Source: Candidatus Kerfeldbacteria bacterium (GTDB taxonomy: Bacteria; Patescibacteriota; Patescibacteriia; UBA9570; XYC2-FULL-38-9). Taken from it: a stretch of 64,000 bases of DNA. Under the pieces are notes generated by a model. That model had not been told where the DNA came from. It saw nothing but the letters and a program-made list of their open reading frames with translations, and searched no databases. Numbering within the stretch: position 1 is the first letter of the stretch; each line of letters starts with the position of its first letter. The position numbers and the translations under genes were made by a program. Positions 2,842 to 61,492 of this stretch are shown here, in pieces. The DNA is taken from the NCBI GenBank assembly GCA_016182555.1, contig JACPGJ010000007.1, positions 64,053-128,052 on the forward strand, given 5' to 3'.

Positions 2842-3726
2842 TTAGGCCGCGTTGGCCTGTTCGGTTTCGGCAATGATTTTCCTAATTTGTCGCGCGGTGA
2901 AGCGCAGCACGGAGATCAACCGAAGCGAACAATGCCCGCACGACCCGGGAATAAGGGCTACCTCTTCATCCGGCGGAGCTGCCTGATGCTTCATCACCAA
3001 GCTGTCCCGCCAGAAGTAGAAGAACTTTATTTGCACTCCCTGCTTGCGCAGGAAACGAATGGCGGCCTGAGTGCGCCGCACTCCCCGGCTATAGGGCACC
3101 ATCTCCCACGCTGCCCGGAAAGCGCGGAAGTACGGCAGCCAGCCCAGTAGAGGAAACAGCGGTAACATGCTCAAAAACTGAACGAACCCGAGGTACGATC
3201 CTCGAATCGGGCTCGCCAGTGTGATGACGATAATGCGATCGGCCGGGTATCCGGCTTTCACGAGTTTCCTCGCGAGTGCGATGGCATTGAGCCCACCCCG
3301 GCTGTAACCCAAAAGGATGAGCGTGTACCCATCCTTCAAGAGCTGCTCAGCACGGGGCCAGTTCAGCGTAGTGGCCAAGCCGATGCGGGCGATGTTCCCG
3401 CAACCGGTCGGAGTCTCGAAGTGATAGAATGCGGCTTTCACCAGCCGCGCGAGGATGAGCGCCATCCGCTCAAAATCCTTGGCGCACTGGTTCCAACCGA
3501 TGCAGAAAAAAATGCCGAACTTACGCCCGGCCTTCTTCTGCTCATGGGGTTCCGGAAGCGCCGCTTTGTGCGTACGGCGATCCAAAACGTTTCCCAATTT
3601 TGCAGGCAAGTCATACTGAAGGGTCACCGGCAGGCAATAGGCCTGCCAGCCAATCACCCAAAACGGCCACAAAATCCACAGCAGCATTGCCCACATGGGG
3701 CACCTCCGCGGTTCGGGTTTATGCAA
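2842..3726 (-). CDS. alpha/beta-fold hydrolase (esterase/lipase-like)
   Basis: Nucleophile-elbow motif GYSRGG (GxSxG); N-terminal TM/signal segment; local GC is higher than the flanks. Confidence 0.5.
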   Translation of the reverse strand: MHKPEPRRCPMWAMLLWILWPFWVIGWQAYCLPVTLQYDLPAKLGNVLDRRTHKAALPEPHEQKKAGRKFGIFFCIGWNQCAKDFERMALILARLVKAAFYHFETPTGCGNIARIGLATTLNWPRAEQLLKDGYTLILLGYSRGGLNAIALARKLVKAGYPADRIIVITLASPIRGSYLGFVQFLSMLPLFPLLGWLPYFRAFRAAWEMVPYSRGVRRTQAAIRFLRKQGVQIKFFYFWRDSLVMKHQAAPPDEEVALIPGSCGHCSLRLISVLRFTARQIRKIIAETEQANAA

Positions 3727-6785: not shown

Positions 6786-8489
6786 TTATTCTTCGCTACG
6801 AACCGTTACTTTCATTTTTTCACCAAGGATAATATTTTCAGACAATAACTGATCTGCTCCCTTACCATACGCTACACGACGACCAACTTGCACATTAAAT
6901 GATTTACCCGCTTTCAAACGACGGGCTTTTTTATATTTCAACACAACATTTTTACCTTTCCTGGCTTTCACCCGGTCAACCACTTTTCCATTAATGCGCA
7001 ATGTGAATACATCACCCACTTGTACTTGATCTTTTGGTACTTGTAATCGGAAAGTGCCACCTTGTGTGGTGTTTCCTTTCGCTACTCCTTGAGCATTTCG
7101 AATTGAACCAATGACACGATTTGTTGCAGAAACCACTGCACCAGCATCAGGGTCTATTGCTAAATCCGTTGCCGGATTGAGTAAAAATATTTCTGTCTGT
7201 TCAACTCCATTCTGCGTACCAAACAGCATCACTTGTTTATCTGTGCCATTGTCATCCACCTCACGATTCACCACCGAGACCACTTCCTGATTATTCACAT
7301 ACTCTGTTGACATAGAATCCACCATGGCTCCTACATTATCGTCTCCGTCAACATAGTAAATATGAACCCCTTCTGCATTATTGGAAGTATAAAACGTGAG
7401 ATAGTTCGTATCATCAATTTCCGAAGTGAGACCCATTTTATTGATAATAAAATCATTTTCCGGCAATTCAATAACCGTTTGCAAGTTATTGGAAACGTCG
7501 CCATCATCATCTTCAACATATTTAAAGAGTGAAGCTGACCCTTCATCAATAGCTGCATTTCCCACATAAACCGTATCATTATACACCTGAATCGCTGGTA
7601 AATTTTGATCTGAAGATGCAATGGTGGTGTAGGTATCACCATCAAAACTCATGACTTCTCCGGTTGTAAAGGCTAAATAGACTACACCATCTTGTTCACT
7701 GGAAGCTTCCAAGGGAACACCATCTTCTGGTTGATTCGCTGTATCCGTCACTTGTTCACAATTTTCATCGACGTCACATACGGTATAGCCACCATTAAAA
7801 AACATGTACAATGTATCACCAATGACCGCCGCAGTTGGATAATTACCAACGGTGCTCCCGCCCTGGTCATCACCAGGAACATCTTCCCCATCAGTATCAT
7901 TGCCAATTTCATCTTCTTGGTCACTTTCAGGATCTTCCGGATCGACAACCTCTGCTTCCACATCATCTTCAGTGACATGCACATACACCAACTCCACCGA
8001 ATCTTGACCCGTTAAACGAAAAATATGTGGCGTATCGGTTTCACCATCGCCTTGGCAAGCTGCCGCAAAATATACTTCATCATTAAATGTCACGACCGAA
8101 TGCCGTCCAACTTGACCACAATAATATTCATCAAGCGGATTCGTTTCCGAACGTTCCCATTGTGTACCAAGCGCATCGTTGGATACCCACCACTCAGAAA
8201 ATGCGTCACTATCATCAATAGCCATACCCGCATTGGCTGTCGCACGCATAGGATCATTGGTAGTAATGGCAATAAATCCATCTTCACCCGGGGCATAGGT
8301 CACCACAGATTCAAAATTAAATTGATCGACATCCTCATCACCGTCGTCATCAACGGCGGGTAGAGTGTCAACATAGTACAACGCACCGTACAATGAGTCA
8401 GCGGCATGAACCGTAGTCGTAAAAAACATGAATGCAAAAAACACTGCTGCAGGCAGAGCGAGCATTCTGTAATAGAAACGTTGAGTCAT
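6786..8489 (-). CDS. secreted, highly acidic protein with C-terminal Ig-like/basic tail
   Basis: N-terminal signal peptide (MLALPAAVFFAFMFFTTTVHAAD), D/E-rich body, basic beta-rich C-terminus. Confidence 0.5.
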   Translation of the reverse strand: MTQRFYYRMLALPAAVFFAFMFFTTTVHAADSLYGALYYVDTLPAVDDDGDEDVDQFNFESVVTYAPGEDGFIAITTNDPMRATANAGMAIDDSDAFSEWWVSNDALGTQWERSETNPLDEYYCGQVGRHSVVTFNDEVYFAAACQGDGETDTPHIFRLTGQDSVELVYVHVTEDDVEAEVVDPEDPESDQEDEIGNDTDGEDVPGDDQGGSTVGNYPTAAVIGDTLYMFFNGGYTVCDVDENCEQVTDTANQPEDGVPLEASSEQDGVVYLAFTTGEVMSFDGDTYTTIASSDQNLPAIQVYNDTVYVGNAAIDEGSASLFKYVEDDDGDVSNNLQTVIELPENDFIINKMGLTSEIDDTNYLTFYTSNNAEGVHIYYVDGDDNVGAMVDSMSTEYVNNQEVVSVVNREVDDNGTDKQVMLFGTQNGVEQTEIFLLNPATDLAIDPDAGAVVSATNRVIGSIRNAQGVAKGNTTQGGTFRLQVPKDQVQVGDVFTLRINGKVVDRVKARKGKNVVLKYKKARRLKAGKSFNVQVGRRVAYGKGADQLLSENIILGEKMKVTVRSEE

Positions 8490-9958: not shown

Positions 9959-11995
9959 TTATTCGCCGCAATACACGGCAAACTGCTTATTCGGAATATT
10001 GCACGGCGAGACGAACCTCGCCCGATAGGTGCTCGCGTTCTCCGGAAGGATAATCGCGCGCACCATCTTGCCCGTGGTTTCGTCGATAATCGGCCAGCCC
10101 GTGCGGTATCCCGGACCGCTGTCCAAATCCTCAAATGGAATTCCTGAATCAATCGCGCCCAGAACGGCATGCCCATCGGTATCCACCCGCTGGAACCGAT
10201 CACAGCCGCCATAGATATCCTGATCCCAGTAATAATCCGGCACACCGTTTGGCGCCGGCACCCAATCGAGCAGCAGCGTTGCCGTTTTCTGCTCACGGTC
10301 GAGCTTGTAGACCGAAAGCGAGCTGTGCTCCGGGTCAGTCGGATCGTAATCCTGCCGCCCGGTTCCGTTGTTATGCGCGGTAAGAATATCTCCTGAAATC
10401 CGTGCATCATGGGCGTGGAAAAACCATTTCGAGTCTGAAGCCCAAGATCCATCCGGATAAAGCAAGGCGTAGCCTTGGTCCACACCAAAATAGCCTACCT
10501 CGCCGGTTGTCTTAGACACTGCGGCGATGTAATTTCGGTGTTTTGCACCGATGAAGAAAGAATCTTCGTCATCGCAGATGGTGTTGGCGTGATAATAGTC
10601 ACTCCCCCCGCCATAGTATCCGTCTCCGCAATAACAACCGTAGTAATTGCAGATCATATAAGAACAATATGTCGGCGTTCCGACATACGTTGAGTCATCG
10701 TCACCACTGCTGGGTGTAGCCCAAGGTGTTGGAGAATCAGTGCTCGGCGTGCAGGTTACTTCTCCTTCAGGTTCGGGCGTGGAATTATCGTAAGGAGTGC
10801 TGTCTCCTGCCGTCGCATCATCATCTCCGTCAGCGGGAGTTTCCATTGGAGTTGGTAATACCGAGTCATCTTCGTTAGTGAGCGGGCTATCAATGCCGTG
10901 AGCCAGCCCGTCTACACATCCGCTCCAGTACTGCTCCACTTGGCCACTTTCTGGATTGATAATGGCGCGACCGAAGCTCATCCAGCTCGTATCACCATCT
11001 ACACACGATTCACTTGTGAGAGCTTGGATGTAGCCCTCTGTGGTCCACTCCGCGTCGTGCGAATCATAGTAGACGCCGAGTTCAGAAACTTCCGGCATCT
11101 CTGCAGCGACATCTTCTGCCTGCATCAGCACTTCCCCGCGTAAATCTACGCGGGTAACACCACTGCCATATCCGTAGTATCCACAGGTGCTTCCCCCGCT
11201 CGAACCATACCATCCACTTCCACCTTCTGCGATGGTTTTCTCTGATGTGGTATTAGCCTGAAGATGATGATGCGGACGTGGTAGCTCTTTGTAGGAGTTT
11301 TCCGGAATAGACATCTTGGCCGATTCATATTCCGGGTACGTGTTTTCAGGAACACACCCTGTTCCAATCGGCGCAGAAATCAACGCTTCTGGGCGGCCAC
11401 CTTCTTCTCTGCCATGCGGCAGAAGTTCACAAATAAAGAATCCACCCGCCACTTCAACAGCAGCGCGGATCTGCCCGAACTGGTCAACGAGTACACATCC
11501 AGTGAAACTCAAACCGTTGGTCCAGTCGTAGAAGGAAACATGACCGAATACATATCCGGGCGCGTCTTTCGCTGTTGTACCGGCGAGCTGGAAGCCACCT
11601 TGCAACGCCGGCACATCGGGTTCAGTTCTGACACTGACCTCTCCCGTCGATTCACCCGATTTCGCGTAGCAGGTGTAGTCAGCGTCAGGTAGCAGGTAAT
11701 AAATTTCGTATTGACCGATATTTACAACAAGGCTGCTGACGCTGGGGAACGAAGCGTCTGATGGGTCGAGATTGACCTCACACCACACATCGCCACCCTT
11801 CTCATCCGGCCAGACAATATCAAGAATCACGTGATGCGCCCCAGTCTCCATGGGAGTGATCTCCGGAACGGGCACAAAAACCGGCACCGGGGTCGGAGTT
11901 GCTTCTGTAAGCGGCGGGCTGTGCTGCGCACAGGCGAAAAAGAAGCAGATGGCAAAAACAGAAAAAAACAGAGAACAATTGACCTTCACGTTCAT
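9959..11995 (-). CDS. large secreted protein with Cys/Tyr/Gly-rich segment
   Basis: Signal peptide, 678 aa, GC-rich relative to the genome; unusual CSYMICNYYGCYCGDGYYGGGSDYY stretch. Confidence 0.5.
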   Translation of the reverse strand: MNVKVNCSLFFSVFAICFFFACAQHSPPLTEATPTPVPVFVPVPEITPMETGAHHVILDIVWPDEKGGDVWCEVNLDPSDASFPSVSSLVVNIGQYEIYYLLPDADYTCYAKSGESTGEVSVRTEPDVPALQGGFQLAGTTAKDAPGYVFGHVSFYDWTNGLSFTGCVLVDQFGQIRAAVEVAGGFFICELLPHGREEGGRPEALISAPIGTGCVPENTYPEYESAKMSIPENSYKELPRPHHHLQANTTSEKTIAEGGSGWYGSSGGSTCGYYGYGSGVTRVDLRGEVLMQAEDVAAEMPEVSELGVYYDSHDAEWTTEGYIQALTSESCVDGDTSWMSFGRAIINPESGQVEQYWSGCVDGLAHGIDSPLTNEDDSVLPTPMETPADGDDDATAGDSTPYDNSTPEPEGEVTCTPSTDSPTPWATPSSGDDDSTYVGTPTYCSYMICNYYGCYCGDGYYGGGSDYYHANTICDDEDSFFIGAKHRNYIAAVSKTTGEVGYFGVDQGYALLYPDGSWASDSKWFFHAHDARISGDILTAHNNGTGRQDYDPTDPEHSSLSVYKLDREQKTATLLLDWVPAPNGVPDYYWDQDIYGGCDRFQRVDTDGHAVLGAIDSGIPFEDLDSGPGYRTGWPIIDETTGKMVRAIILPENASTYRARFVSPCNIPNKQFAVYCGE

Positions 11996-54587: not shown

Positions 54588-54794
54588 ATTTTCGTTTGAA
54601 TTATTAGGCTTGTTAAATATGGCTCAGGAAACACAAAAGGCCTCCTGAACCAGCTGGCGTTACCCTTTCGGGCTTCACCCTATGTCCTTTCGAACACAGG
54701 CCTCTACAGCAAAACTGGTCAGAAGACCGTCTCTGGGCTGTAGAGGACTTTTCACCATGCTCAAGGGGTCAACCTTGAGTTTAGGCTACTTAAA

Positions 54795-56072
54795 TTGTAT
54801 TTATATGTAACACCAAAACCGCAATTTTTGCAACTCAAGCCTCATGATTACTTGCCAATATTAGAAAAGCATACTTTACTAGTAGATGCATATATGAAGA
54901 TAAATGAATATATAAATTTATTACAAAGTCGTTTTGAAGACTTTATTGAAGTAACTGATGAGCATCCATTTTTTCTTGGTTTATTTAATTATGTAGATTT
55001 CTTAGAATCAAATCCAGAGTTAGAAAAAATACTAAGTGGCTTAGTTGAAGAACAAAAAAAAGCAAAAGAACCTTTGCTAGCAGCAGAGAAAATAGCTGTT
55101 GCTGATCTCATTCGTATACTGAACGATCTAAAAAAATTTATTAAAAAAAATAAGCTTGATTATTCAAGTGTTAAAAACGAATTTGAAACTTTTGAAGGAT
55201 TCCTTAATGGAAGTGTACAAGGTGGAGGACCATCATTAGTATTTAAGCTAAAAGGGCGCATTAGCAATATTATTGATCGTCTCTATAATGACATTAGTAA
55301 CAAAAAATTAATTTCTTCCTTTAAAAAAGATAAGTATAGTTCAGCAGCACTGCCCTCAAGTGTAGATATCTACTTTGAACAAGAAAAACTGTATCAAAGT
55401 CTATGTGCTGTAAATATATGGCCAGATTATGAGGACATAAATGAAATATATTGGATGATGAAAGATGGTGTAAATCAGTACACTAAATTATATAAGGAGG
55501 CTTGGCAAGATGGTAAGCTTGATTTCGCTAAAAGATGTATAGCTGACTATATTAAAAGTATGTGCGGTGAGTGGGAGAATATTCAACAAGGCAAAATACT
55601 CGAATCTCCTGTCCTATTTAATAAGAAAAAGATTTATTTAGCTGTTAAACGGTTGCATCGTTACATTTTAACTGAGTTGCATAAGGAAAAAAATGTAGGC
55701 AAAACTCCAACCAGTAACCATCTTAAAACAAAAATCACTTTAACTTGGATTACATTAAAGAAAAATAACAGCAATATAAAATTAGTGGTTAATAATTTAT
55801 ATGACCATCCTCTTGACTTAGATACTATTCATACAAACTGGGTAGGATATCTATATACAATATGTGAAAATTCATCAATTGAATATCATAAAAGCACTCA
55901 AGATTATATTAACTCAGCCGCTTGTCCTATATTCAAGAAATTAAAATTATCTAAAATAAAACTATTAACCAAATCGTACAATAATTCAAAATTAACCCCT
56001 GACGTTAAATCAGAAATTATATCAGAACGATCCTACAAAGTAAGATTGAACAAGAAAAAAAGTAGTTCTTGA
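54795..56072 (+). CDS. hypothetical Lys-rich protein (AT-rich cargo gene)
   Basis: 425-aa ORF, about 28% GC; own hairpin terminator follows. Confidence 0.45.
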   Translation: MYLYVTPKPQFLQLKPHDYLPILEKHTLLVDAYMKINEYINLLQSRFEDFIEVTDEHPFFLGLFNYVDFLESNPELEKILSGLVEEQKKAKEPLLAAEKIAVADLIRILNDLKKFIKKNKLDYSSVKNEFETFEGFLNGSVQGGGPSLVFKLKGRISNIIDRLYNDISNKKLISSFKKDKYSSAALPSSVDIYFEQEKLYQSLCAVNIWPDYEDINEIYWMMKDGVNQYTKLYKEAWQDGKLDFAKRCIADYIKSMCGEWENIQQGKILESPVLFNKKKIYLAVKRLHRYILTELHKEKNVGKTPTSNHLKTKITLTWITLKKNNSNIKLVVNNLYDHPLDLDTIHTNWVGYLYTICENSSIEYHKSTQDYINSAACPIFKKLKLSKIKLLTKSYNNSKLTPDVKSEIISERSYKVRLNKKKSSS

Positions 56073-56098
56073 AAAATCTTGAAAAGTGGAAAAGATTC

Positions 56099-56128
56099 AA
56101 AATCCCCTTAAATAAAGGGGATTTTTTG
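56099..56128 (+). terminator. rho-independent terminator
   Basis: AAATCCCCTT-AAATA-AAGGGGATTTTTTG. Confidence 0.5.
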
Positions 56129-56216
56129 TATCTATAAATCATAAATACTGAATTTCTAAAGAAGTGTAAAAAGACTACTCTATTAACTATTAGAAAAAAT
56201 AATTAATAGAAATGAC

Positions 56217-56495
56217 ATGAATAACAAAACATACAATGAATCAATCTATGAAGATGCAGACAAGTATTGGGTATCTTCGGACATGTTTATTGCAGCTACC
56301 CTTATAGCATTACACCACAAACTCATCTCCATTGAATGGCAAGACCATCGCAAAGCGACATTCATTTTTAAGCACTCTAAAAGTTTAACTAGCACAGTTG
56401 AACAGTATTTTTCCGATAAGTTAACACTCAATCCACGAGAATTATTTGATGCACAGCGGTTATTAAAAAGCAGATTATACGTACCTAACCGCTAA
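56217..56495 (+). CDS. hypothetical small protein
   Basis: 92-aa ORF directly upstream of the CHC2 zinc-finger gene, same strand. Confidence 0.35.
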   Translation: MNNKTYNESIYEDADKYWVSSDMFIAATLIALHHKLISIEWQDHRKATFIFKHSKSLTSTVEQYFSDKLTLNPRELFDAQRLLKSRLYVPNR

Positions 56496-56500
56496 CGCAT

Positions 56501-57088
56501 ATGAATGATACTTACGAAGCTGAAAAACAGTGGCGAAAAACGCTTTATCGTCCCAGTACGCAAGAATTATTACAGATATTTCCTGAAGCAAAATCTAGCA
56601 TTGAACATAATCTGAAACTATATCGCAATAGAATGAAAGTGTTAAAAACTGGCCTCACTCTACGAATGAACATTTATAAAAAGTTAACGAAGGATGAATT
56701 CTCCCTCTGGTTTTATAGACAATGGCTTGAAACAACTACTGGAAAAGAGGTCACCACTCTACAAAAACGCATCACCACCTTACAACGCCAGCTGAATGCA
56801 CTAAATGGAGTGATTGATACTCGCGAGATCATTGATGATCTCATTCAACAAGCCAAAGAAGTACCGATTGAGCAGATCGTAGATACTCCACTAAAACAGT
56901 CAGGTCAACGACTAGTTGGCCTCTGTGTACTGCATGAAGAACGTAGAGCATCGTTCGTGATCTATAAGCAAACCAATACCTGCTGGTGCTTTGGCTGCCA
57001 ACAAGGCGGTGACAGCATCAAATTAACTCAATTACTGCATGGTTACTCTTTTCCACAAGCTGTACGCTATTTAACCCATACAACTTAA
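56501..57088 (+). CDS. CHC2-type zinc-finger protein (DnaG-primase zinc-binding-domain-like)
   Basis: CVLHEERRASFVIYKQTNTCWCFGCQQGGDSIKL matches the zf-CHC2 pattern C-x2-H-x17-C-F-G-C..GGD.I. Confidence 0.6.
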   Translation: MNDTYEAEKQWRKTLYRPSTQELLQIFPEAKSSIEHNLKLYRNRMKVLKTGLTLRMNIYKKLTKDEFSLWFYRQWLETTTGKEVTTLQKRITTLQRQLNALNGVIDTREIIDDLIQQAKEVPIEQIVDTPLKQSGQRLVGLCVLHEERRASFVIYKQTNTCWCFGCQQGGDSIKLTQLLHGYSFPQAVRYLTHTT

Positions 57089-58585
57089 ATGAATATGAAT
57101 ACAAATGAATTAGACCCTACTGAATCTAACGCATCTCTGGATTACAACGATTTTCAAGAAATTATACCAGCTTTAGATTTTATCAATGAACACGCCTATG
57201 TGGCTATTCCTAAGCGTGATGTCACTGATAAAGGCATGGTGACAAGCTACCAGCTCATTCGCTCTGATGGTAAGGCTATTGGACTAAAGCCACCTTATAC
57301 TGAACTAATGGCCTTAAAGCTTTACAGTGAGCGAATGCCAGCACCTGAAGCGCGATGGTCGAACACAAGCTTACAGGAGTTTCTCTCTACTCACGGTGAA
57401 TCATCTTATCAGGATATATCCAAAGTAATAGCAGACCTTGTAGCCATATTAAAAAAATATATTGACTTTGAAGATGATCGGTTAATCTACCTGATTAGTT
57501 GCTGGACGATTGCAACCTATTTTCATCGCGTATTTGTGGCATTCCCCTATTTACATCTCAATGGCAATGCTGGGAGCGGTAAGACTAAGACATTAATTAT
57601 TCTGTCCTTGTTAGCTTTTAATGCTGAATTATCAGCTAGTAATACCCCTGCCTATACTATCCGTATTATTCATAGTAATAGCGCAACATTGTTGCTTGAT
57701 GAAGTAGAAACACTCAAACGCCCAAAAGACGAGGACGTTAAAACCATCGTAGCTATATTAAATTCTGGCTATAAAAAAGGGGCCCGAGTAGGTAAAGCAG
57801 AACAAATTGGAAAATCTCAACTCTGGACTCCAAAAAAATATGATGCCTACTCACCCAAAGTATTTGCTGGTATTCAAGGTCTTGATGCAACACTTGCTTC
57901 ACGGTGCATCCCCATTACCATGGTGAACTCAAGTAATAATACGATTAAAAATGTTGAGGTCTATGAGCAAGATGCGCATTGGCCAAAACTACGTGATGCC
58001 TGCTATTGGTTGCTGATGAAAGAGCATAAGGCAGTACGCAGGCACTACAGTCAGTTAAGTGATACCGAATTAGTAGGCCGTGAATGGGAATTATGGAAGC
58101 CCCTACTTACCATTGCTCAATTAGCCGATGAAAGCGTTTATCAGCAAGTACGCTCATTAGCTTTAGAAATCCATCAACAAAAACAGGAAGCGACCATTGA
58201 AGATATGGAAACACCTAAAATCTTGATGGCCTTGGAAGCGTTGTTGCAAACCAAATTTGGCGATAGCTGCTGTTCGCTGCAAGAAATAGTTGATTTCGTA
58301 GTGGAGTATGATCACGAACATTTTGGCTGGCTTAAAGAGCCCTATAAACAGTTACGTCCAACGCGGTGGATGGGGCAACAGTTACGTCGCGCTGGAGTAG
58401 TAAGTGGTACGAGTAGACCAATCCGTATGGGTGGAAAAGTAGCCCGTGGTTTTGATCTAAAACTTCAAGTTATACAGCAGCGTCTTAAAAACTATGCAGC
58501 AGACGGTTACATGGTTACAGATGATGAAAATACTCCGCCAGTATCTACTAACGTCTCTGTAACTGAGCCTGTAACTCCTGACTAA
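57089..58585 (+). CDS. P-loop NTPase, putative replication initiator/helicase of the element
   Basis: Walker A GNAGSGKT and Walker B LLLDEVE; 498 aa; iteron array lies immediately downstream. Confidence 0.5.
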   Translation: MNMNTNELDPTESNASLDYNDFQEIIPALDFINEHAYVAIPKRDVTDKGMVTSYQLIRSDGKAIGLKPPYTELMALKLYSERMPAPEARWSNTSLQEFLSTHGESSYQDISKVIADLVAILKKYIDFEDDRLIYLISCWTIATYFHRVFVAFPYLHLNGNAGSGKTKTLIILSLLAFNAELSASNTPAYTIRIIHSNSATLLLDEVETLKRPKDEDVKTIVAILNSGYKKGARVGKAEQIGKSQLWTPKKYDAYSPKVFAGIQGLDATLASRCIPITMVNSSNNTIKNVEVYEQDAHWPKLRDACYWLLMKEHKAVRRHYSQLSDTELVGREWELWKPLLTIAQLADESVYQQVRSLALEIHQQKQEATIEDMETPKILMALEALLQTKFGDSCCSLQEIVDFVVEYDHEHFGWLKEPYKQLRPTRWMGQQLRRAGVVSGTSRPIRMGGKVARGFDLKLQVIQQRLKNYAADGYMVTDDENTPPVSTNVSVTEPVTPD

Positions 58586-58661
58586 TCCCTCGGTTACAAC
58601 ATGGTTACATCACATATATTCAATTCTATTTATTAAAAAATCACTTTGTAACTGTGTAACC
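58505..58661. repeat. iteron-like array of GGTTACA heptamers (candidate replication origin)
   Basis: GGTTACATGGTTACA at 58505-58520, GGTTACAACATGGTTACA at 58592-58609, inverted GTAACTGTGTAACC at 58648-58661. Confidence 0.5.
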
Positions 58662-58685
58662 GAAAATCACAATAAATCTTAAACT

Positions 58686-59294
58686 ATGAAATCAAACAAA
58701 CTCATACCCACACCTGAGAATATACAAAAATCAGTGCGAGAAATAGCTGAAAAAGACAAAAGTGAAAGTATATGCAGGGAACTATCAGAAATGCTTATAA
58801 AATCCTATTCACTAAAAGGTACTAAGCGCAAAGAAATTTATCAACAGATTGACGAAAAATTTAAAGTCGCCTTAAAGCTGGATAACCTCAATAATCACTA
58901 TTTAGCAACAGCTAGCGTTGATAAAGAATATCAAGAATTTCTCAGTATTTTTATTAAGACACTCATCCTTGAATATAACTGCTCTACTGCCAGTGAAAAA
59001 TCGCTCGCACAAATTATAGGGATTAACTACATCCGTGTTTTACGATACAGCGCTAACCTTGAAAAGTGTACTAATTTGAAATACTTAACCGAAGTTGCAA
59101 CAGGATATTACGGGATGATTAGTAAAGAACTAGATCGAGCAGAGCGGCAGTATATGACAGCCCTAATGCTGCTGAAACAACTAAAAACTCCTGAATTAAA
59201 AGTAAGTATTAAAGCCAATACCGCTTTTATCGCACAGCAGCAACAAATCAATGCTGATAAACCCAACACCTATGACAACACCATTAAGGGCTAA
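58686..59294 (+). CDS. hypothetical protein
   Basis: 202-aa ORF. Confidence 0.4.
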   Translation: MKSNKLIPTPENIQKSVREIAEKDKSESICRELSEMLIKSYSLKGTKRKEIYQQIDEKFKVALKLDNLNNHYLATASVDKEYQEFLSIFIKTLILEYNCSTASEKSLAQIIGINYIRVLRYSANLEKCTNLKYLTEVATGYYGMISKELDRAERQYMTALMLLKQLKTPELKVSIKANTAFIAQQQQINADKPNTYDNTIKG

Positions 59295-59619
59295 TGATTT
59301 CGGAAAAAATAGAATCTTGGCTGAGGATTGTAAAAAAATCAGAATTGAAGATGTTGTCAAAAAAACCAATCGTCAGCTTAAAGCAATTCTATTACAGGCC
59401 AATGTGAGCGCAATTGATGTTGAATTAGAACTTACTACCACGATTCTGTGTAGCGGTGGTTTACGTTATTGGTTTAAGTGTCCTGTATGCAAAAAACGAA
59501 TTGGTGTTCTATTTCAGCATCCTATTGAACAGGTTATTGGCTGTCGTACCTGTTTGCATCTGGATTATCTAAAACATCGCTATAAAGGCATGATCGAAGA
59601 ATCGATTCAAAATAATTAA
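59272..59619 (+). CDS. zinc-ribbon protein
   Basis: CPVCKK...CRTC four-cysteine ribbon; start uncertain because the ORF overlaps the upstream gene. Confidence 0.4.
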   Translation: MTTPLRANDFGKNRILAEDCKKIRIEDVVKKTNRQLKAILLQANVSAIDVELELTTTILCSGGLRYWFKCPVCKKRIGVLFQHPIEQVIGCRTCLHLDYLKHRYKGMIEESIQNN

Positions 59620-59622
59620 AAG

Positions 59623-59796
59623 ATGTCAGAGCAAAACCACAGCAATTCAATTTTTACTGAAGAGCAAAAGAATAATTTTGCTGGTTTTGCTATGATTTTA
59701 GGGAGAATTCATAAAAGACTTATTGCCGAAGGGTATACGATCAAAGATGGAAAAATTATCCCTCCTGAGGTACAATCTAATAAAGTACATATATGA
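59623..59796 (+). CDS. 58-aa ORF translationally coupled to the recombinase (candidate directionality factor/regulator)
   Basis: MSEQNHSNSIFTEEQKNNFAGFAMILGRIHKRLIAEGYTIKDGKIIPPEVQSNKVHI; its TGA stop overlaps the recombinase ATG (ATATGA). Confidence 0.35.
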   Translation: MSEQNHSNSIFTEEQKNNFAGFAMILGRIHKRLIAEGYTIKDGKIIPPEVQSNKVHI

Positions 59797-61481
59797 AGAA
59801 TACGCAATCGAAACCATACGTCATATACTCACGCAAAAGCACGGACGATCTGGATAATCAAAAAAACTCAATACCCTATCAAGTTGAGGCGTGTGCAGCA
59901 TTGGCAAAAAGTAAGAATTTACCCGTTTCCTCACTCACTGAAGAAGGTTTTATAACGGACGGAATAATACGTGAAAAGCATACTGCATTTAAAACATCCG
60001 ATATTACGGTCACCAAAGAAGGTCAAGTCAATTTTAAGATAGAACGTCCAAAGTTTAATATACTGATTCAGAAATTATTGAGTGGAGAATTTGCTGGAAT
60101 AATCTGTCTTTGTTGGGATCGGATTAGTCGTAATGAACAGGACGGTATTTTAATTAAACAGTTAATGGATAACGGCATTGATTTTCAATTTGTTCAAGTA
60201 ACCTACGACAAAACCAGTTCAGGAGCTTTACATCGTGATATTGATGGTATGTTTGCCTCGCATTATTCTCGAGTCATTAGTGAGAAGGTAAGAAATACAT
60301 TTGAAAAGTTTCGTAAAGATGGTCGCTGCATTGGTCCTGCTCCCATTGGAAGTTTAGACAATGGTTCTGATGATAAACCACTTGATCCTGAACGAGCACC
60401 TCTTGTAAAGCGAGTTTTTGAGTTATATGCAACGGGAGAATGGAGTCTTAGCCAGCTGGGTAAATGGGCAAATAAATCAGGGTTAACCAGTAAACCCTCA
60501 CGAGCAAAACGTACTCGCGAAGAAATACTTGCTGGTGAGGAAGATAACCGACCAAAGGTGAGTCGGCCAGTAAACGAAAAAACAATTGAAAATATCTTAA
60601 AAAATCCTTTTTATATTGGTAAACATAGAAGCAAATCAGGAGAAATTTGGGATTGCAACCATCCTCGTTTAATTGATACGTCACTCTTCAATGCAGTACA
60701 ACAACAACTCAAGGCACGAAATGTGACCGTCCACTATGTCGATAAAGAATTTTATACGTATCGCGGGTTAATTCGCTGTGAATGTGGTCGTTCGTATTCT
60801 CCGTATGAAAAGAAAGGGAACACTTACTATCGGTGTCGTTGTAAAGAAACTTGTACTAACCCAAATGTGAATATTCGTGAAGATGCTATCCATAAACAAA
60901 TAATGGCTTTTTTAGATCGTATCTATTTCACAGATGAAGAACTCGCTGAAATTGAAGCGGGAGCAAAAACTGGTTTAGATAAAATATCTGAAAAACGAAA
61001 TAACGAATTGACTGATCTTGAACGTGAGCGAAAACGAATATATGGAGATTTAGATTATATGAAAAAAAATAAAATCACCCTTCTTCGTAATAATGTTTCG
61101 ACTATTGATGAATATTCCAAAGATGTTGAACGTCTTGAACAGGAGCTGAGTGTAAATGCTCAAAAAATGGAGATATACCGAGAGTCAGAACACGAAATGT
61201 TAAAATATGTCATTACCTTTTCCGAACTCGTAAAAATGGCCAGTGAATACTATAAACATGCACTTGATAGCGAAAAACGCGAAATTGTCGCACAAGTGTT
61301 TTCCGAACTCATTTTATTTGACCTTTCATTTCAATTTATTCCAAAAGACGGCTTTTCTGCGCTTTTTTTGAGACATGAACAAAACAAAAGCGCCCAGACT
61401 ACTCTGGACGCGACATCTTGCTCGGGGGGTGGGGTTCGAACCCACGGCCAAGCGATTAACAGTCGCTTGCTCTACCGCTGA
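59793..61481 (+). CDS. large serine recombinase (resolvase/invertase catalytic domain, recombinase domain, zinc ribbon, coiled coil)
   Basis: N-terminal YSRKST catalytic serine motif; CECGRSY...YYRCRC zinc ribbon; last ~60 nt read antisense through tRNA-Asn. Confidence 0.85.
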   Translation: MKNTQSKPYVIYSRKSTDDLDNQKNSIPYQVEACAALAKSKNLPVSSLTEEGFITDGIIREKHTAFKTSDITVTKEGQVNFKIERPKFNILIQKLLSGEFAGIICLCWDRISRNEQDGILIKQLMDNGIDFQFVQVTYDKTSSGALHRDIDGMFASHYSRVISEKVRNTFEKFRKDGRCIGPAPIGSLDNGSDDKPLDPERAPLVKRVFELYATGEWSLSQLGKWANKSGLTSKPSRAKRTREEILAGEEDNRPKVSRPVNEKTIENILKNPFYIGKHRSKSGEIWDCNHPRLIDTSLFNAVQQQLKARNVTVHYVDKEFYTYRGLIRCECGRSYSPYEKKGNTYYRCRCKETCTNPNVNIREDAIHKQIMAFLDRIYFTDEELAEIEAGAKTGLDKISEKRNNELTDLERERKRIYGDLDYMKKNKITLLRNNVSTIDEYSKDVERLEQELSVNAQKMEIYRESEHEMLKYVITFSELVKMASEYYKHALDSEKREIVAQVFSELILFDLSFQFIPKDGFSALFLRHEQNKSAQTTLDATSCSGGGVRTHGQAINSRLLYR

Positions 61482-61492
61482 GCTACCCCCGA
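61421..61492 (-). tRNA. tRNA-Asn (anticodon GTT)
   Basis: Minus strand folds as a 7-bp acceptor stem (TCGGGGG/CCCCCGA), TA, D-arm GCTC-AGCGGTA-GAGC, anticodon stem AGCGA/TCGCT with loop CTGTTAA (U33, GTT, A37), T-arm GTGGG-TTCGAAC-CCCAC and discriminator G; no encoded CCA. Confidence 0.85.

Follow-up and report, generated by a model that had tools for sequence, protein, structure and literature searches.

In a 64,000-nucleotide stretch of a Candidatus Kerfeldbacteria genome (hereafter the window), an array of short repeats at positions 58505-58661 lies at the 3' end of a gene for a 498-amino-acid (aa) P-loop nucleoside triphosphatase (NTPase). Reading from sequence comparisons, we consider that this array is probably the cis-acting replication origin of an integrated element of about 6.6 kb and that the NTPase encoded upstream serves as its initiator and self-loading helicase. 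The origin reading is supported because several lines of evidence agree, namely the conservation of the array, the covariation of its repeats with the protein lineage, its exclusive linkage to the NTPase, the fold of this protein, its homology, and published biochemistry on its relatives. A first-pass annotation, made from the letters alone, had proposed a candidate iteron origin directly 3' of an initiator gene, and the computational tests reported here, including a survey in which 37 of 77 loci show the same placement, agree with it. The array is a new example of a known design, in which the gene for an initiator-helicase carries an iteron origin at its 3' end. The gene and the parts of the array are as follows.

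57089-58585, + strand: gene for the candidate initiator-helicase, 498 aa, with P-loop, Walker B motif, winged helix and disordered tail
58505-58661, both orientations: whole array of eight RGTTACA sites, from motif counts and simulation
58505-58519, + strand: pair 1, GGTTACA twice with t between (starts 58505 and 58513, spacing 8), within the coding tail of the NTPase gene
58520-58557: spacer 1, 38 nt, 42% GC, coding for part of the disordered NTPase tail
58558-58576, - strand: pair 2, TGTAACT twice with gagcc between (starts 58558 and 58570, spacing 12)
58592-58609, + strand: pair 3, GGTTACA twice with acat between (starts 58592 and 58603, spacing 11), the first pair past the stop codon
58610-58646: spacer 2, 37 nt, 16% GC, a candidate DNA-unwinding element that holds a weak -10-like TATATT
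58647-58661, - strand: pair 4, TGTAACT and TGTAACC with g between (starts 58647 and 58655, spacing 8)

The heptamer GGTTACA starts at 58505, 58513, 58592 and 58603 on the + strand and has a - strand copy at 58655-58661. These are the two direct tandem pairs and the single inverted copy within about 160 bp that had been described in the first-pass annotation, and all five sites were confirmed, with the correction that the first tandem pair ends at 58519 rather than 58520. The count itself was too low. Relaxing the motif to RGTTACA adds TGTAACT (AGTTACA reversed) at 58558, 58570 and 58647, which brings in the previously missed pair 2 and the first site of pair 4 and gives eight sites with dyad symmetry. 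The eight sites form four tandem pairs of alternating orientation (→→ ←← →→ ←←), or two modules, each reading →→ spacer ←←, and the start-to-start spacings of the underlying RGTWAC hexamers are 8, 46, 12, 21, 11, 45 and 8. Pair 4 mirrors pair 1, with outer 16-nt arms that are 88% complementary. The NTPase stop codon (58583-58585) sits between pairs 2 and 3 and the A/T-rich stretch between pairs 3 and 4, so that the array straddles the stop, as had been noted. Pairs 1 and 2 together with spacer 1 encode residues 473-498 of the NTPase. With 16% GC, spacer 2 stands apart from spacer 1 (42%), the element (36%) and the window (43%).

In total, the 64-kb window has no excess of GGTTACA copies (6 vs 6.4 expected), but their clustering is extreme. 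Five of the six copies lie in the array, and the sole copy outside it is at position 3303. The maximum per 157 bp is 5 observed vs 3 in 1000 first-order Markov simulations, and GGTTACA ranks as the most clustered of all heptamers of the window. For RGTTACA, 8 of the 12 copies in the window fall inside the 157 bp of the array, where the simulated maximum is again 3.

Two observations concern copies of the motif elsewhere. Outside the array, GGTTACA has 1 copy and RGTTACA has 4, against whole-window expectations of 6.4 and 11.8, respectively, a scarcity that may reflect a slight tendency of host DNA to avoid the site, or mere composition. Two copies of AACAGTTACGTC (58347-58358 and 58377-58388), 30 nt apart in the part of the NTPase gene that codes for the winged helix, contain AGTTAC and both encode Q-L-R. 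They were considered as extra sites and rejected, as relatives are without them; on this comparison, they are probably not part of the array.

The array is retained in related loci with little change in geometry. The locus L001, whose NTPase is 72% identical to that of the window, carries all eight sites in identical order. Pair 1 is also kept in L001, L005, L007, L010, L011, L013 and L014. The spacings are [8,42,11,24,11,42,8] in L014 (Saccharibacteria) and [8,43,12,19,12,44,8] in L005, and those of L001, L007, L010, L011 and L013 are similar to those of the window array; across the Patescibacteria arrays, the ranges are 8 / ~42-46 / 11-12 / ~19-25 / 10-12 / ~42-46 / 8-9. The boundary of the gene moves relative to the array: the stop codon follows pair 2 in the window and pair 3 in L001, and in L005, L007 and L014 it precedes pair 1. 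In six loci with NTPases 35-45% identical to that of the window (L005, L007, L010, L011, L014 and, from Peribacteria, L013), the GGTTAC array starts right after the stop codon and is fully intergenic. When the window is aligned with L001, 25 of 26 positions within the sites are identical, compared with 14 of 44 in the intervening DNA, and the protein sequences of the two NTPase tails are unrelated. As judged from these alignments, the constraint on the array is on the DNA and not on the protein, because the sites are kept while the position of the stop codon, the intervening DNA and the protein tail diverge.

The repeats themselves change with the protein. In L002, L003 and L004, whose proteins are 48-50% identical to that of the window, GGTTTC/GAAACC is found at the same place, wholly within the coding tail, leaving 11-40 nt between the array and the next gene. 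GGTTAC is thus kept by more distant proteins (35-45%) while the closer L002-L004 carry GGTTTC. The repeat sequence switches between protein lineages and its position stays constant, a pattern that is one of covariation at the sequence level. Across the array-bearing loci, the NTPase gene is the only element gene that is always present. The integrase is of the serine or the tyrosine type (tyrosine in L005), and the downstream genes vary while the array and its geometry persist.

A separate conserved block lies just downstream of the arrays of Patescibacteria and Saccharibacteria relatives, in L010 (~7655-7800), L011 (~3120-3250) and L014 (~7650-7790). This block, in which a TTGTACA...TATAAT-like promoter precedes 'TAGCTTAGACCAAA...GAAACCGCTATATTTTTTTAGTATAGT' with its inverted repeats, is absent from the window and could represent either a small RNA or another cis element.

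Beyond these relatives, we surveyed 77 homolog-bearing loci from a wide range of bacterial and archaeal phyla. In 37 of the 77, the top-ranked hexamer cluster of the locus falls within ±300 nt of the homolog's stop codon, compared with about 5 expected by chance. The hexamers are specific to clades (GTAGAC, GTCACA, AGGGAC, GGGCAC, AGGGTC, GGGTAC and others), and the arrays share a common grammar of tandem sites about one helical turn apart that are opposed across a spacer. On the Streptomyces plasmid NZ_CP108827.1, an element of the actinomycete integrative and conjugative element (AICE) type with Prim-Pol, FtsK and tyrosine integrase, 13 CCGCTAC sites arranged as >>> ... <<< straddle the stop codon of the DUF3631 gene. 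NTPase homologs are also found on small circular plasmids, namely pXZ1 (6,970 bp), a pRN-like plasmid whose large open reading frame (ORF) gives a match at E 6e-15, and Acinetobacter plasmids of 8.9-12 kb. More distant relatives occur in phage and virus contigs as well.

The NTPase carries an invariant P-loop (G164 and K165), invariant Walker B residues D204 and E205, a conserved GYKKG loop and R272. In the AlphaFold2 model, with a predicted local distance difference test (pLDDT) score of 86, an N-terminal domain is followed by a P-loop core resembling AAA+ and superfamily 3 (SF3) ATPases, a helical region and, towards the C-terminus, a winged helix (about residues 394-467); the tail is predicted to be disordered, its pLDDT dropping under 50 from about residue 480. 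The top Foldseek match of the model in the PDB is 7pds, the self-loading helicase Rep1 of the staphylococcal pathogenicity island SaPI1 (E 1.9e-6), and further matches include MCM, African swine fever virus PrimPol, Orc1/Cdc6, NrS-1, poxvirus D5/E5, adeno-associated virus Rep40 and the JC virus helicase (rank 27). A profile search of all PDB sequences, among them Rep1 and PriRep5, gave a best E of 0.15 (globins) and no match to the SaPI Reps; the likeness to SaPI Rep is at the level of fold only.

Sequence comparison identified a closer family. Residues 291-456 of the NTPase align to positions 16-171 of the 182 in the Pfam profile DUF3631 (PF12307) at E 1.7e-4, and 12 of 30 aligned relatives match this profile at E ≤0.01 (best 2.5e-12). 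When the family alignment A1 was compared by hhalign with the DUF3631 protein of the Streptomyces plasmid NZ_CP108827.1, annotated as such by the Prokaryotic Genome Annotation Pipeline (PGAP), the two matched with 99.4% probability and E 2.3e-21 over 317 columns; tblastn provides a further link to this plasmid at E 3e-6. DUF3631 is the RepAM family (PMC3218068). These profile comparisons indicate that the 498-aa NTPase is homologous to the DUF3631/RepAM initiators.

RepAM provides the nearest precedent. This protein binds to multiple copies of an identical 8-bp repeat that lie at the 3' end of repAM and form a putative origin (PMC2440964), as found for pMEA300 by te Poele et al. in 2006 and reviewed in the same article. 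The window and pMEA300 share a homologous protein family, multiple identical short repeats that are inverted, can form hairpins and lie at the 3' end of the gene encoding the initiator, and an integrative element located at a tRNA gene with a site-specific recombinase gene downstream. The opposed clusters that straddle the stop codon on the Streptomyces DUF3631 plasmid are as in the window. The two systems differ in host (an actinomycete there, a bacterium of the candidate phyla radiation (CPR) here), in repeat length (8 bp there, 6-7 bp here) and in integrase (tyrosine type there, a large serine recombinase here). In addition, the window element lacks an FtsK-type transfer gene, a Prim-Pol and a pC194-like nick site, its NTPase scores just under the Pfam threshold of the family, and the predicted fold of this protein points to helicase loading, not to rolling circle as originally suggested for RepAM.

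The functional parallel comes from the SaPIs and the wider group of phage-inducible chromosomal islands (PICIs). The C-terminal winged helix of SaPI Rep recognises penta- or hexanucleotide iterons, and binding and melting are ATP-independent; the SaPI origin directly follows rep and has 6-12 iterons, two or more of which flank an A/T-rich region on either side, in opposite orientation (PMC9371898). The window has eight sites, of which pairs 3 and 4 converge on the 37-nt, 16%-GC spacer. Both proteins combine an AAA+ helicase core with a C-terminal winged helix, SaPI1 Rep1 being the best structural match, and in both cases a primase-related gene lies just upstream, which in the window encodes a CHC2 zinc ribbon only. 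The differences are that sequence similarity to SaPI Reps is not detectable, that the window array begins inside the coding tail and has two modules with a fixed eight-site geometry, and that the element integrates by a serine recombinase, with Stl-type repressor, capsid-size and packaging genes not detected among its proteins. Of the comparison with SaPI/PICI and plasmid origins drawn in the first-pass annotation, the layout and the fold stand. The element is not a PICI, phage-satellite genes having not been found in it, and its homologous precedent is RepAM of actinomycete elements.

In the archaeal plasmid pRN1, an element of about 100 bp downstream of a rep gene for an SF3 and winged-helix protein is needed for replication; this element is symmetric, lies 3' of orf904 and remains functional at other places in the plasmid (PMC4234260). 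The helicase part of ORF904, which joins prim-pol, SF3 helicase and winged helix, is a detectable relative of the NTPase via the pXZ1 ORF. The pRN1 system differs in its archaeal host, in the fusion of primase to helicase, and in that its element has been described as a stem-loop and protein-binding motifs in it were not identified. In viruses with SF3 helicases, opposed short sites and an A/T-rich segment direct the head-to-head assembly of two initiator-helicase hexamers. Site II of the simian virus 40 large T antigen consists of four GAGGC pentamers as inverted pairs, and the papillomavirus E1 sites are comparable. These are eukaryotic viruses with a different type of origin-binding domain, located on the other side of the ATPase, and the likeness is one of fold class only. 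By analogy, the window array fits the RepAM, SaPI and pRN1 precedents, being homologous to the first and presumably working like the second.

In the mechanism that we propose, the C-terminal winged helix of the NTPase would read the hexamer RGTTAC, and protomers would fill the tandem pairs that face each other across two spacers of ~37 nt, giving oligomers in opposed orientation. Spacer 2, the 16%-GC segment between pairs 3 and 4, would melt, and AAA+/SF3-like rings would close around the single strands and then unwind the DNA. Priming would be provided by the adjacent zinc-ribbon protein and/or the host primase, and the excised circle would be copied by the host polymerase. Occupancy of the array would probably also dampen downstream transcription, because pair 3 and spacer 2 adjoin the next gene on its upstream side (the promoter match at this place does not exceed chance). 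We also entertain a wider reading, which we consider slightly less likely than not. The NTPase gene and the 157-bp array would form a self-contained minimal replicon with a geometry fixed across several Patescibacteria classes and reprogrammable iterons (GGTTAC to GGTTTC), and replication of the whole DUF3631/RepAM class would rely on an SF3-like helicase that loads itself as a double oligomer, and not on rolling circle.

Several observations weigh against the origin reading. The NTPase scores 22.2 bits with DUF3631, below the curated threshold of 24. When the recognition helix and wing of GGTTAC-type proteins are set against those of the GAAACC type, the wing turn is K/N-rich vs V-M, in a region too variable for this to be more than suggestive. 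Only one of the two spacers in the window is A/T-rich (spacer 2; spacer 1 has 42% GC), and about half of the distant loci are without a top-ranked cluster at the stop codon. A catalytic primase was not found among the element proteins in Pfam, PHROGs and NCBIfam, the databases used for the domain searches. Finally, terminal overlaps were seen in none of the 29 whole short contigs with relatives, and there was no circular or excised form in the assemblies.

The array could instead be a transcriptional operator only, through which the NTPase or another element protein autoregulates the rep operon or gates the genes from 58686 on, including the recombinase. This appears unlikely to us. A sigma-70-like match (GTTACA-16-TATATT, 58593-58620, + strand) does overlap the first site of pair 3 and spacer 2, upstream of the gene for a 202-aa protein, and a regulatory role for the RepAM binding site has been raised in a review (PMC2440964). 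However, scanning the region for promoters and terminators gave hits that did not exceed those in shuffled sequences (promoter 2 vs 2.1 expected), and the arrays of L002, L003 and L004 lie wholly inside the coding tail at 11-40 nt before the next gene. Moreover, the downstream genes change between loci while the array geometry stays, and an operator would not need eight sites with dyad symmetry and a 16%-GC core. A dual role as origin and regulatory site is likely, and regulation alone is not.

Iteron-like arrays also play partition, copy-control and packaging-type roles in plasmids, and four element proteins (425, 202, 122 and 57 aa) have no assigned function. The array might accordingly be read as a partition centromere, a site for copy control or handcuffing without initiation, a packaging site, or a set of accessory sites for the recombinase, a group of roles that we regard as decidedly unlikely. 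No match to ParA/ParB or terminase was obtained among the element proteins, the array occurs with both serine and tyrosine integrases and away from the element ends, and the NTPase alone is always linked to it.

For a rolling-circle double-strand origin, in which the inverted repeats would extrude hairpins that present a nick site, the ability of each module to fold as a hairpin in single-stranded DNA (minimum free energy -19.2 kcal/mol, z = -3.1) would be expected, and models with a hairpin and a nick site have been published for pMEA300 (PMC2440964) and, by one group, for pRN1 (PMC4234260). This hairpin potential is, however, an automatic consequence of opposed binding sites. The linked protein is a P-loop AAA+/SF3-like ATPase, and matches to HUH or Rep_1/Rep_2/Rep_trans were not found in the eight element proteins. 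The pC194-type CTTGATA is absent from 58505-58661 and occurs nearest to it at 58929; the window has 11 copies, a number at chance level. The authors of the RepAM work themselves called several features atypical for rolling-circle replication (PMC2440964). We consider a rolling-circle origin highly unlikely.

That the repeats are a by-product of a Val-Thr-rich low-complexity tail, or chance, is scarcely credible: GTTACA and GTAACY both read Val-Thr, sites 2, 3 and 4 encode V-T in the tail, and the L001 tail has several V-T dipeptides too, but only four of the eight sites lie in coding DNA, the reading frame differs between the two copies of pair 1, the wholly intergenic arrays of L005, L007, L010, L011 and L014 refute a coding origin, and the simulated maximum cluster is 3 vs 8 observed.

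If the array is the origin of this element, its interest lies in the CPR host, the fixed eight-site geometry and the family-wide rule. The CPR, or Patescibacteria, comprise a large share of bacterial diversity, and a limited literature search found no described CPR replicon or iteron origin and no account of this type of element. The array and the NTPase would offer a concrete pair of origin and initiator, with defined candidate sites, a predicted melting region and natural specificity variants, as a start for CPR genetic tools. Should the minimal-replicon reading hold, such modules could give the first plasmid-vector backbones for CPR bacteria, and the DUF3631/RepAM class as a whole would range from actinomycete AICEs to CPR, Planctomycetota and archaeal elements. 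The 2006 observation that RepAM binds at the 3' end of its own gene is extended here to a rule across many bacterial and archaeal phyla, and the structural match links the RepAM family to the self-loading helicases of the staphylococcal islands. This rule and the helicase link argue against the rolling-circle model first proposed for RepAM elements.

The array is hosted by a small integrated mobile element of about 6.6 kb in the genome of this CPR bacterium. The block is assigned as such because its gene order recurs in relatives beside different host genes and different tRNAs. Its extent and main features other than the NTPase gene and the array are as follows.

54795-61419: integrated element, approximate extent, ~6.6 kb, 36% GC vs 43% in the window
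56217-56495, + strand: DUF5659 protein, 92 aa, with synteny limited to close relatives
56501-57088, + strand: 195-aa protein with a DnaG-type CHC2 zinc ribbon (residues 108-193), whose stop codon abuts the NTPase start
59793-61481, + strand: large serine recombinase, 562 aa, the element integrase
61420-61492, - strand: tRNA-Asn gene at the right junction of the element, overlapped by the end of the recombinase ORF

The element is a low-GC block of eight co-oriented genes, which encode, in order, a 425-aa protein, the DUF5659 protein, the 195-aa CHC2 protein, the 498-aa P-loop NTPase, proteins of 202, 122 and 57 aa, and the 562-aa serine recombinase. Its left end can be placed only within 54588-54794. 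At the right end, the recombinase ORF overlaps the opposite-strand tRNA-Asn gene by 62 nt. In L001, a tRNA-Trp gene (10268-10341) is at the equivalent place and is overlapped by the homologous recombinase ORF by 10 nt. From these junctions, insertion in this element family seems to target the 3' ends of various tRNA genes, and excision may change the C-terminus of the recombinase. A search for attL/attR between the tRNA junction and the left border revealed a weak TGCTC..GGGGT resemblance only (TGCTCAAGGGGT / TGCTCGGGGGGT).

Domain searches of the element proteins found no satellite or packaging functions (repressor, capsid redirection) and left four ORFs without assignment. They also gave no match to Rep_3 or a related initiator, and the protein linked to the array is a P-loop ATPase, unlike in the classical iteron theta plasmids, where a dimeric winged-helix initiator of the Rep_3/RepA type lacks an ATPase and DnaA/DnaC load the DnaB of the host. 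In the 195-aa protein, a catalytic primase domain was not detected and the N-terminal half has no domain assignment. Toprim or zinc-ribbon domains are fused to the NTPase in the distant relatives P0025, P0043 and P0048, and in this comparison the 195-aa protein and the NTPase of the window look like a split, reduced primase-helicase.

Two further observations concern the integration module. In L013 (~892, Peribacteria), a serine recombinase 55% identical to that of the window is located upstream of the NTPase gene, an order that, on sequence grounds, indicates modular reshuffling of integration and replication modules. In the window, the second most clustered heptamer is found at 59630-59692, with AGCAAAA at 59631 and 59664 as direct copies followed by TTTTGCT at 59678 and 59687. 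This cluster falls at the start of the 57-aa ORF directly upstream of the recombinase gene and may be a further small protein-binding site or chance.

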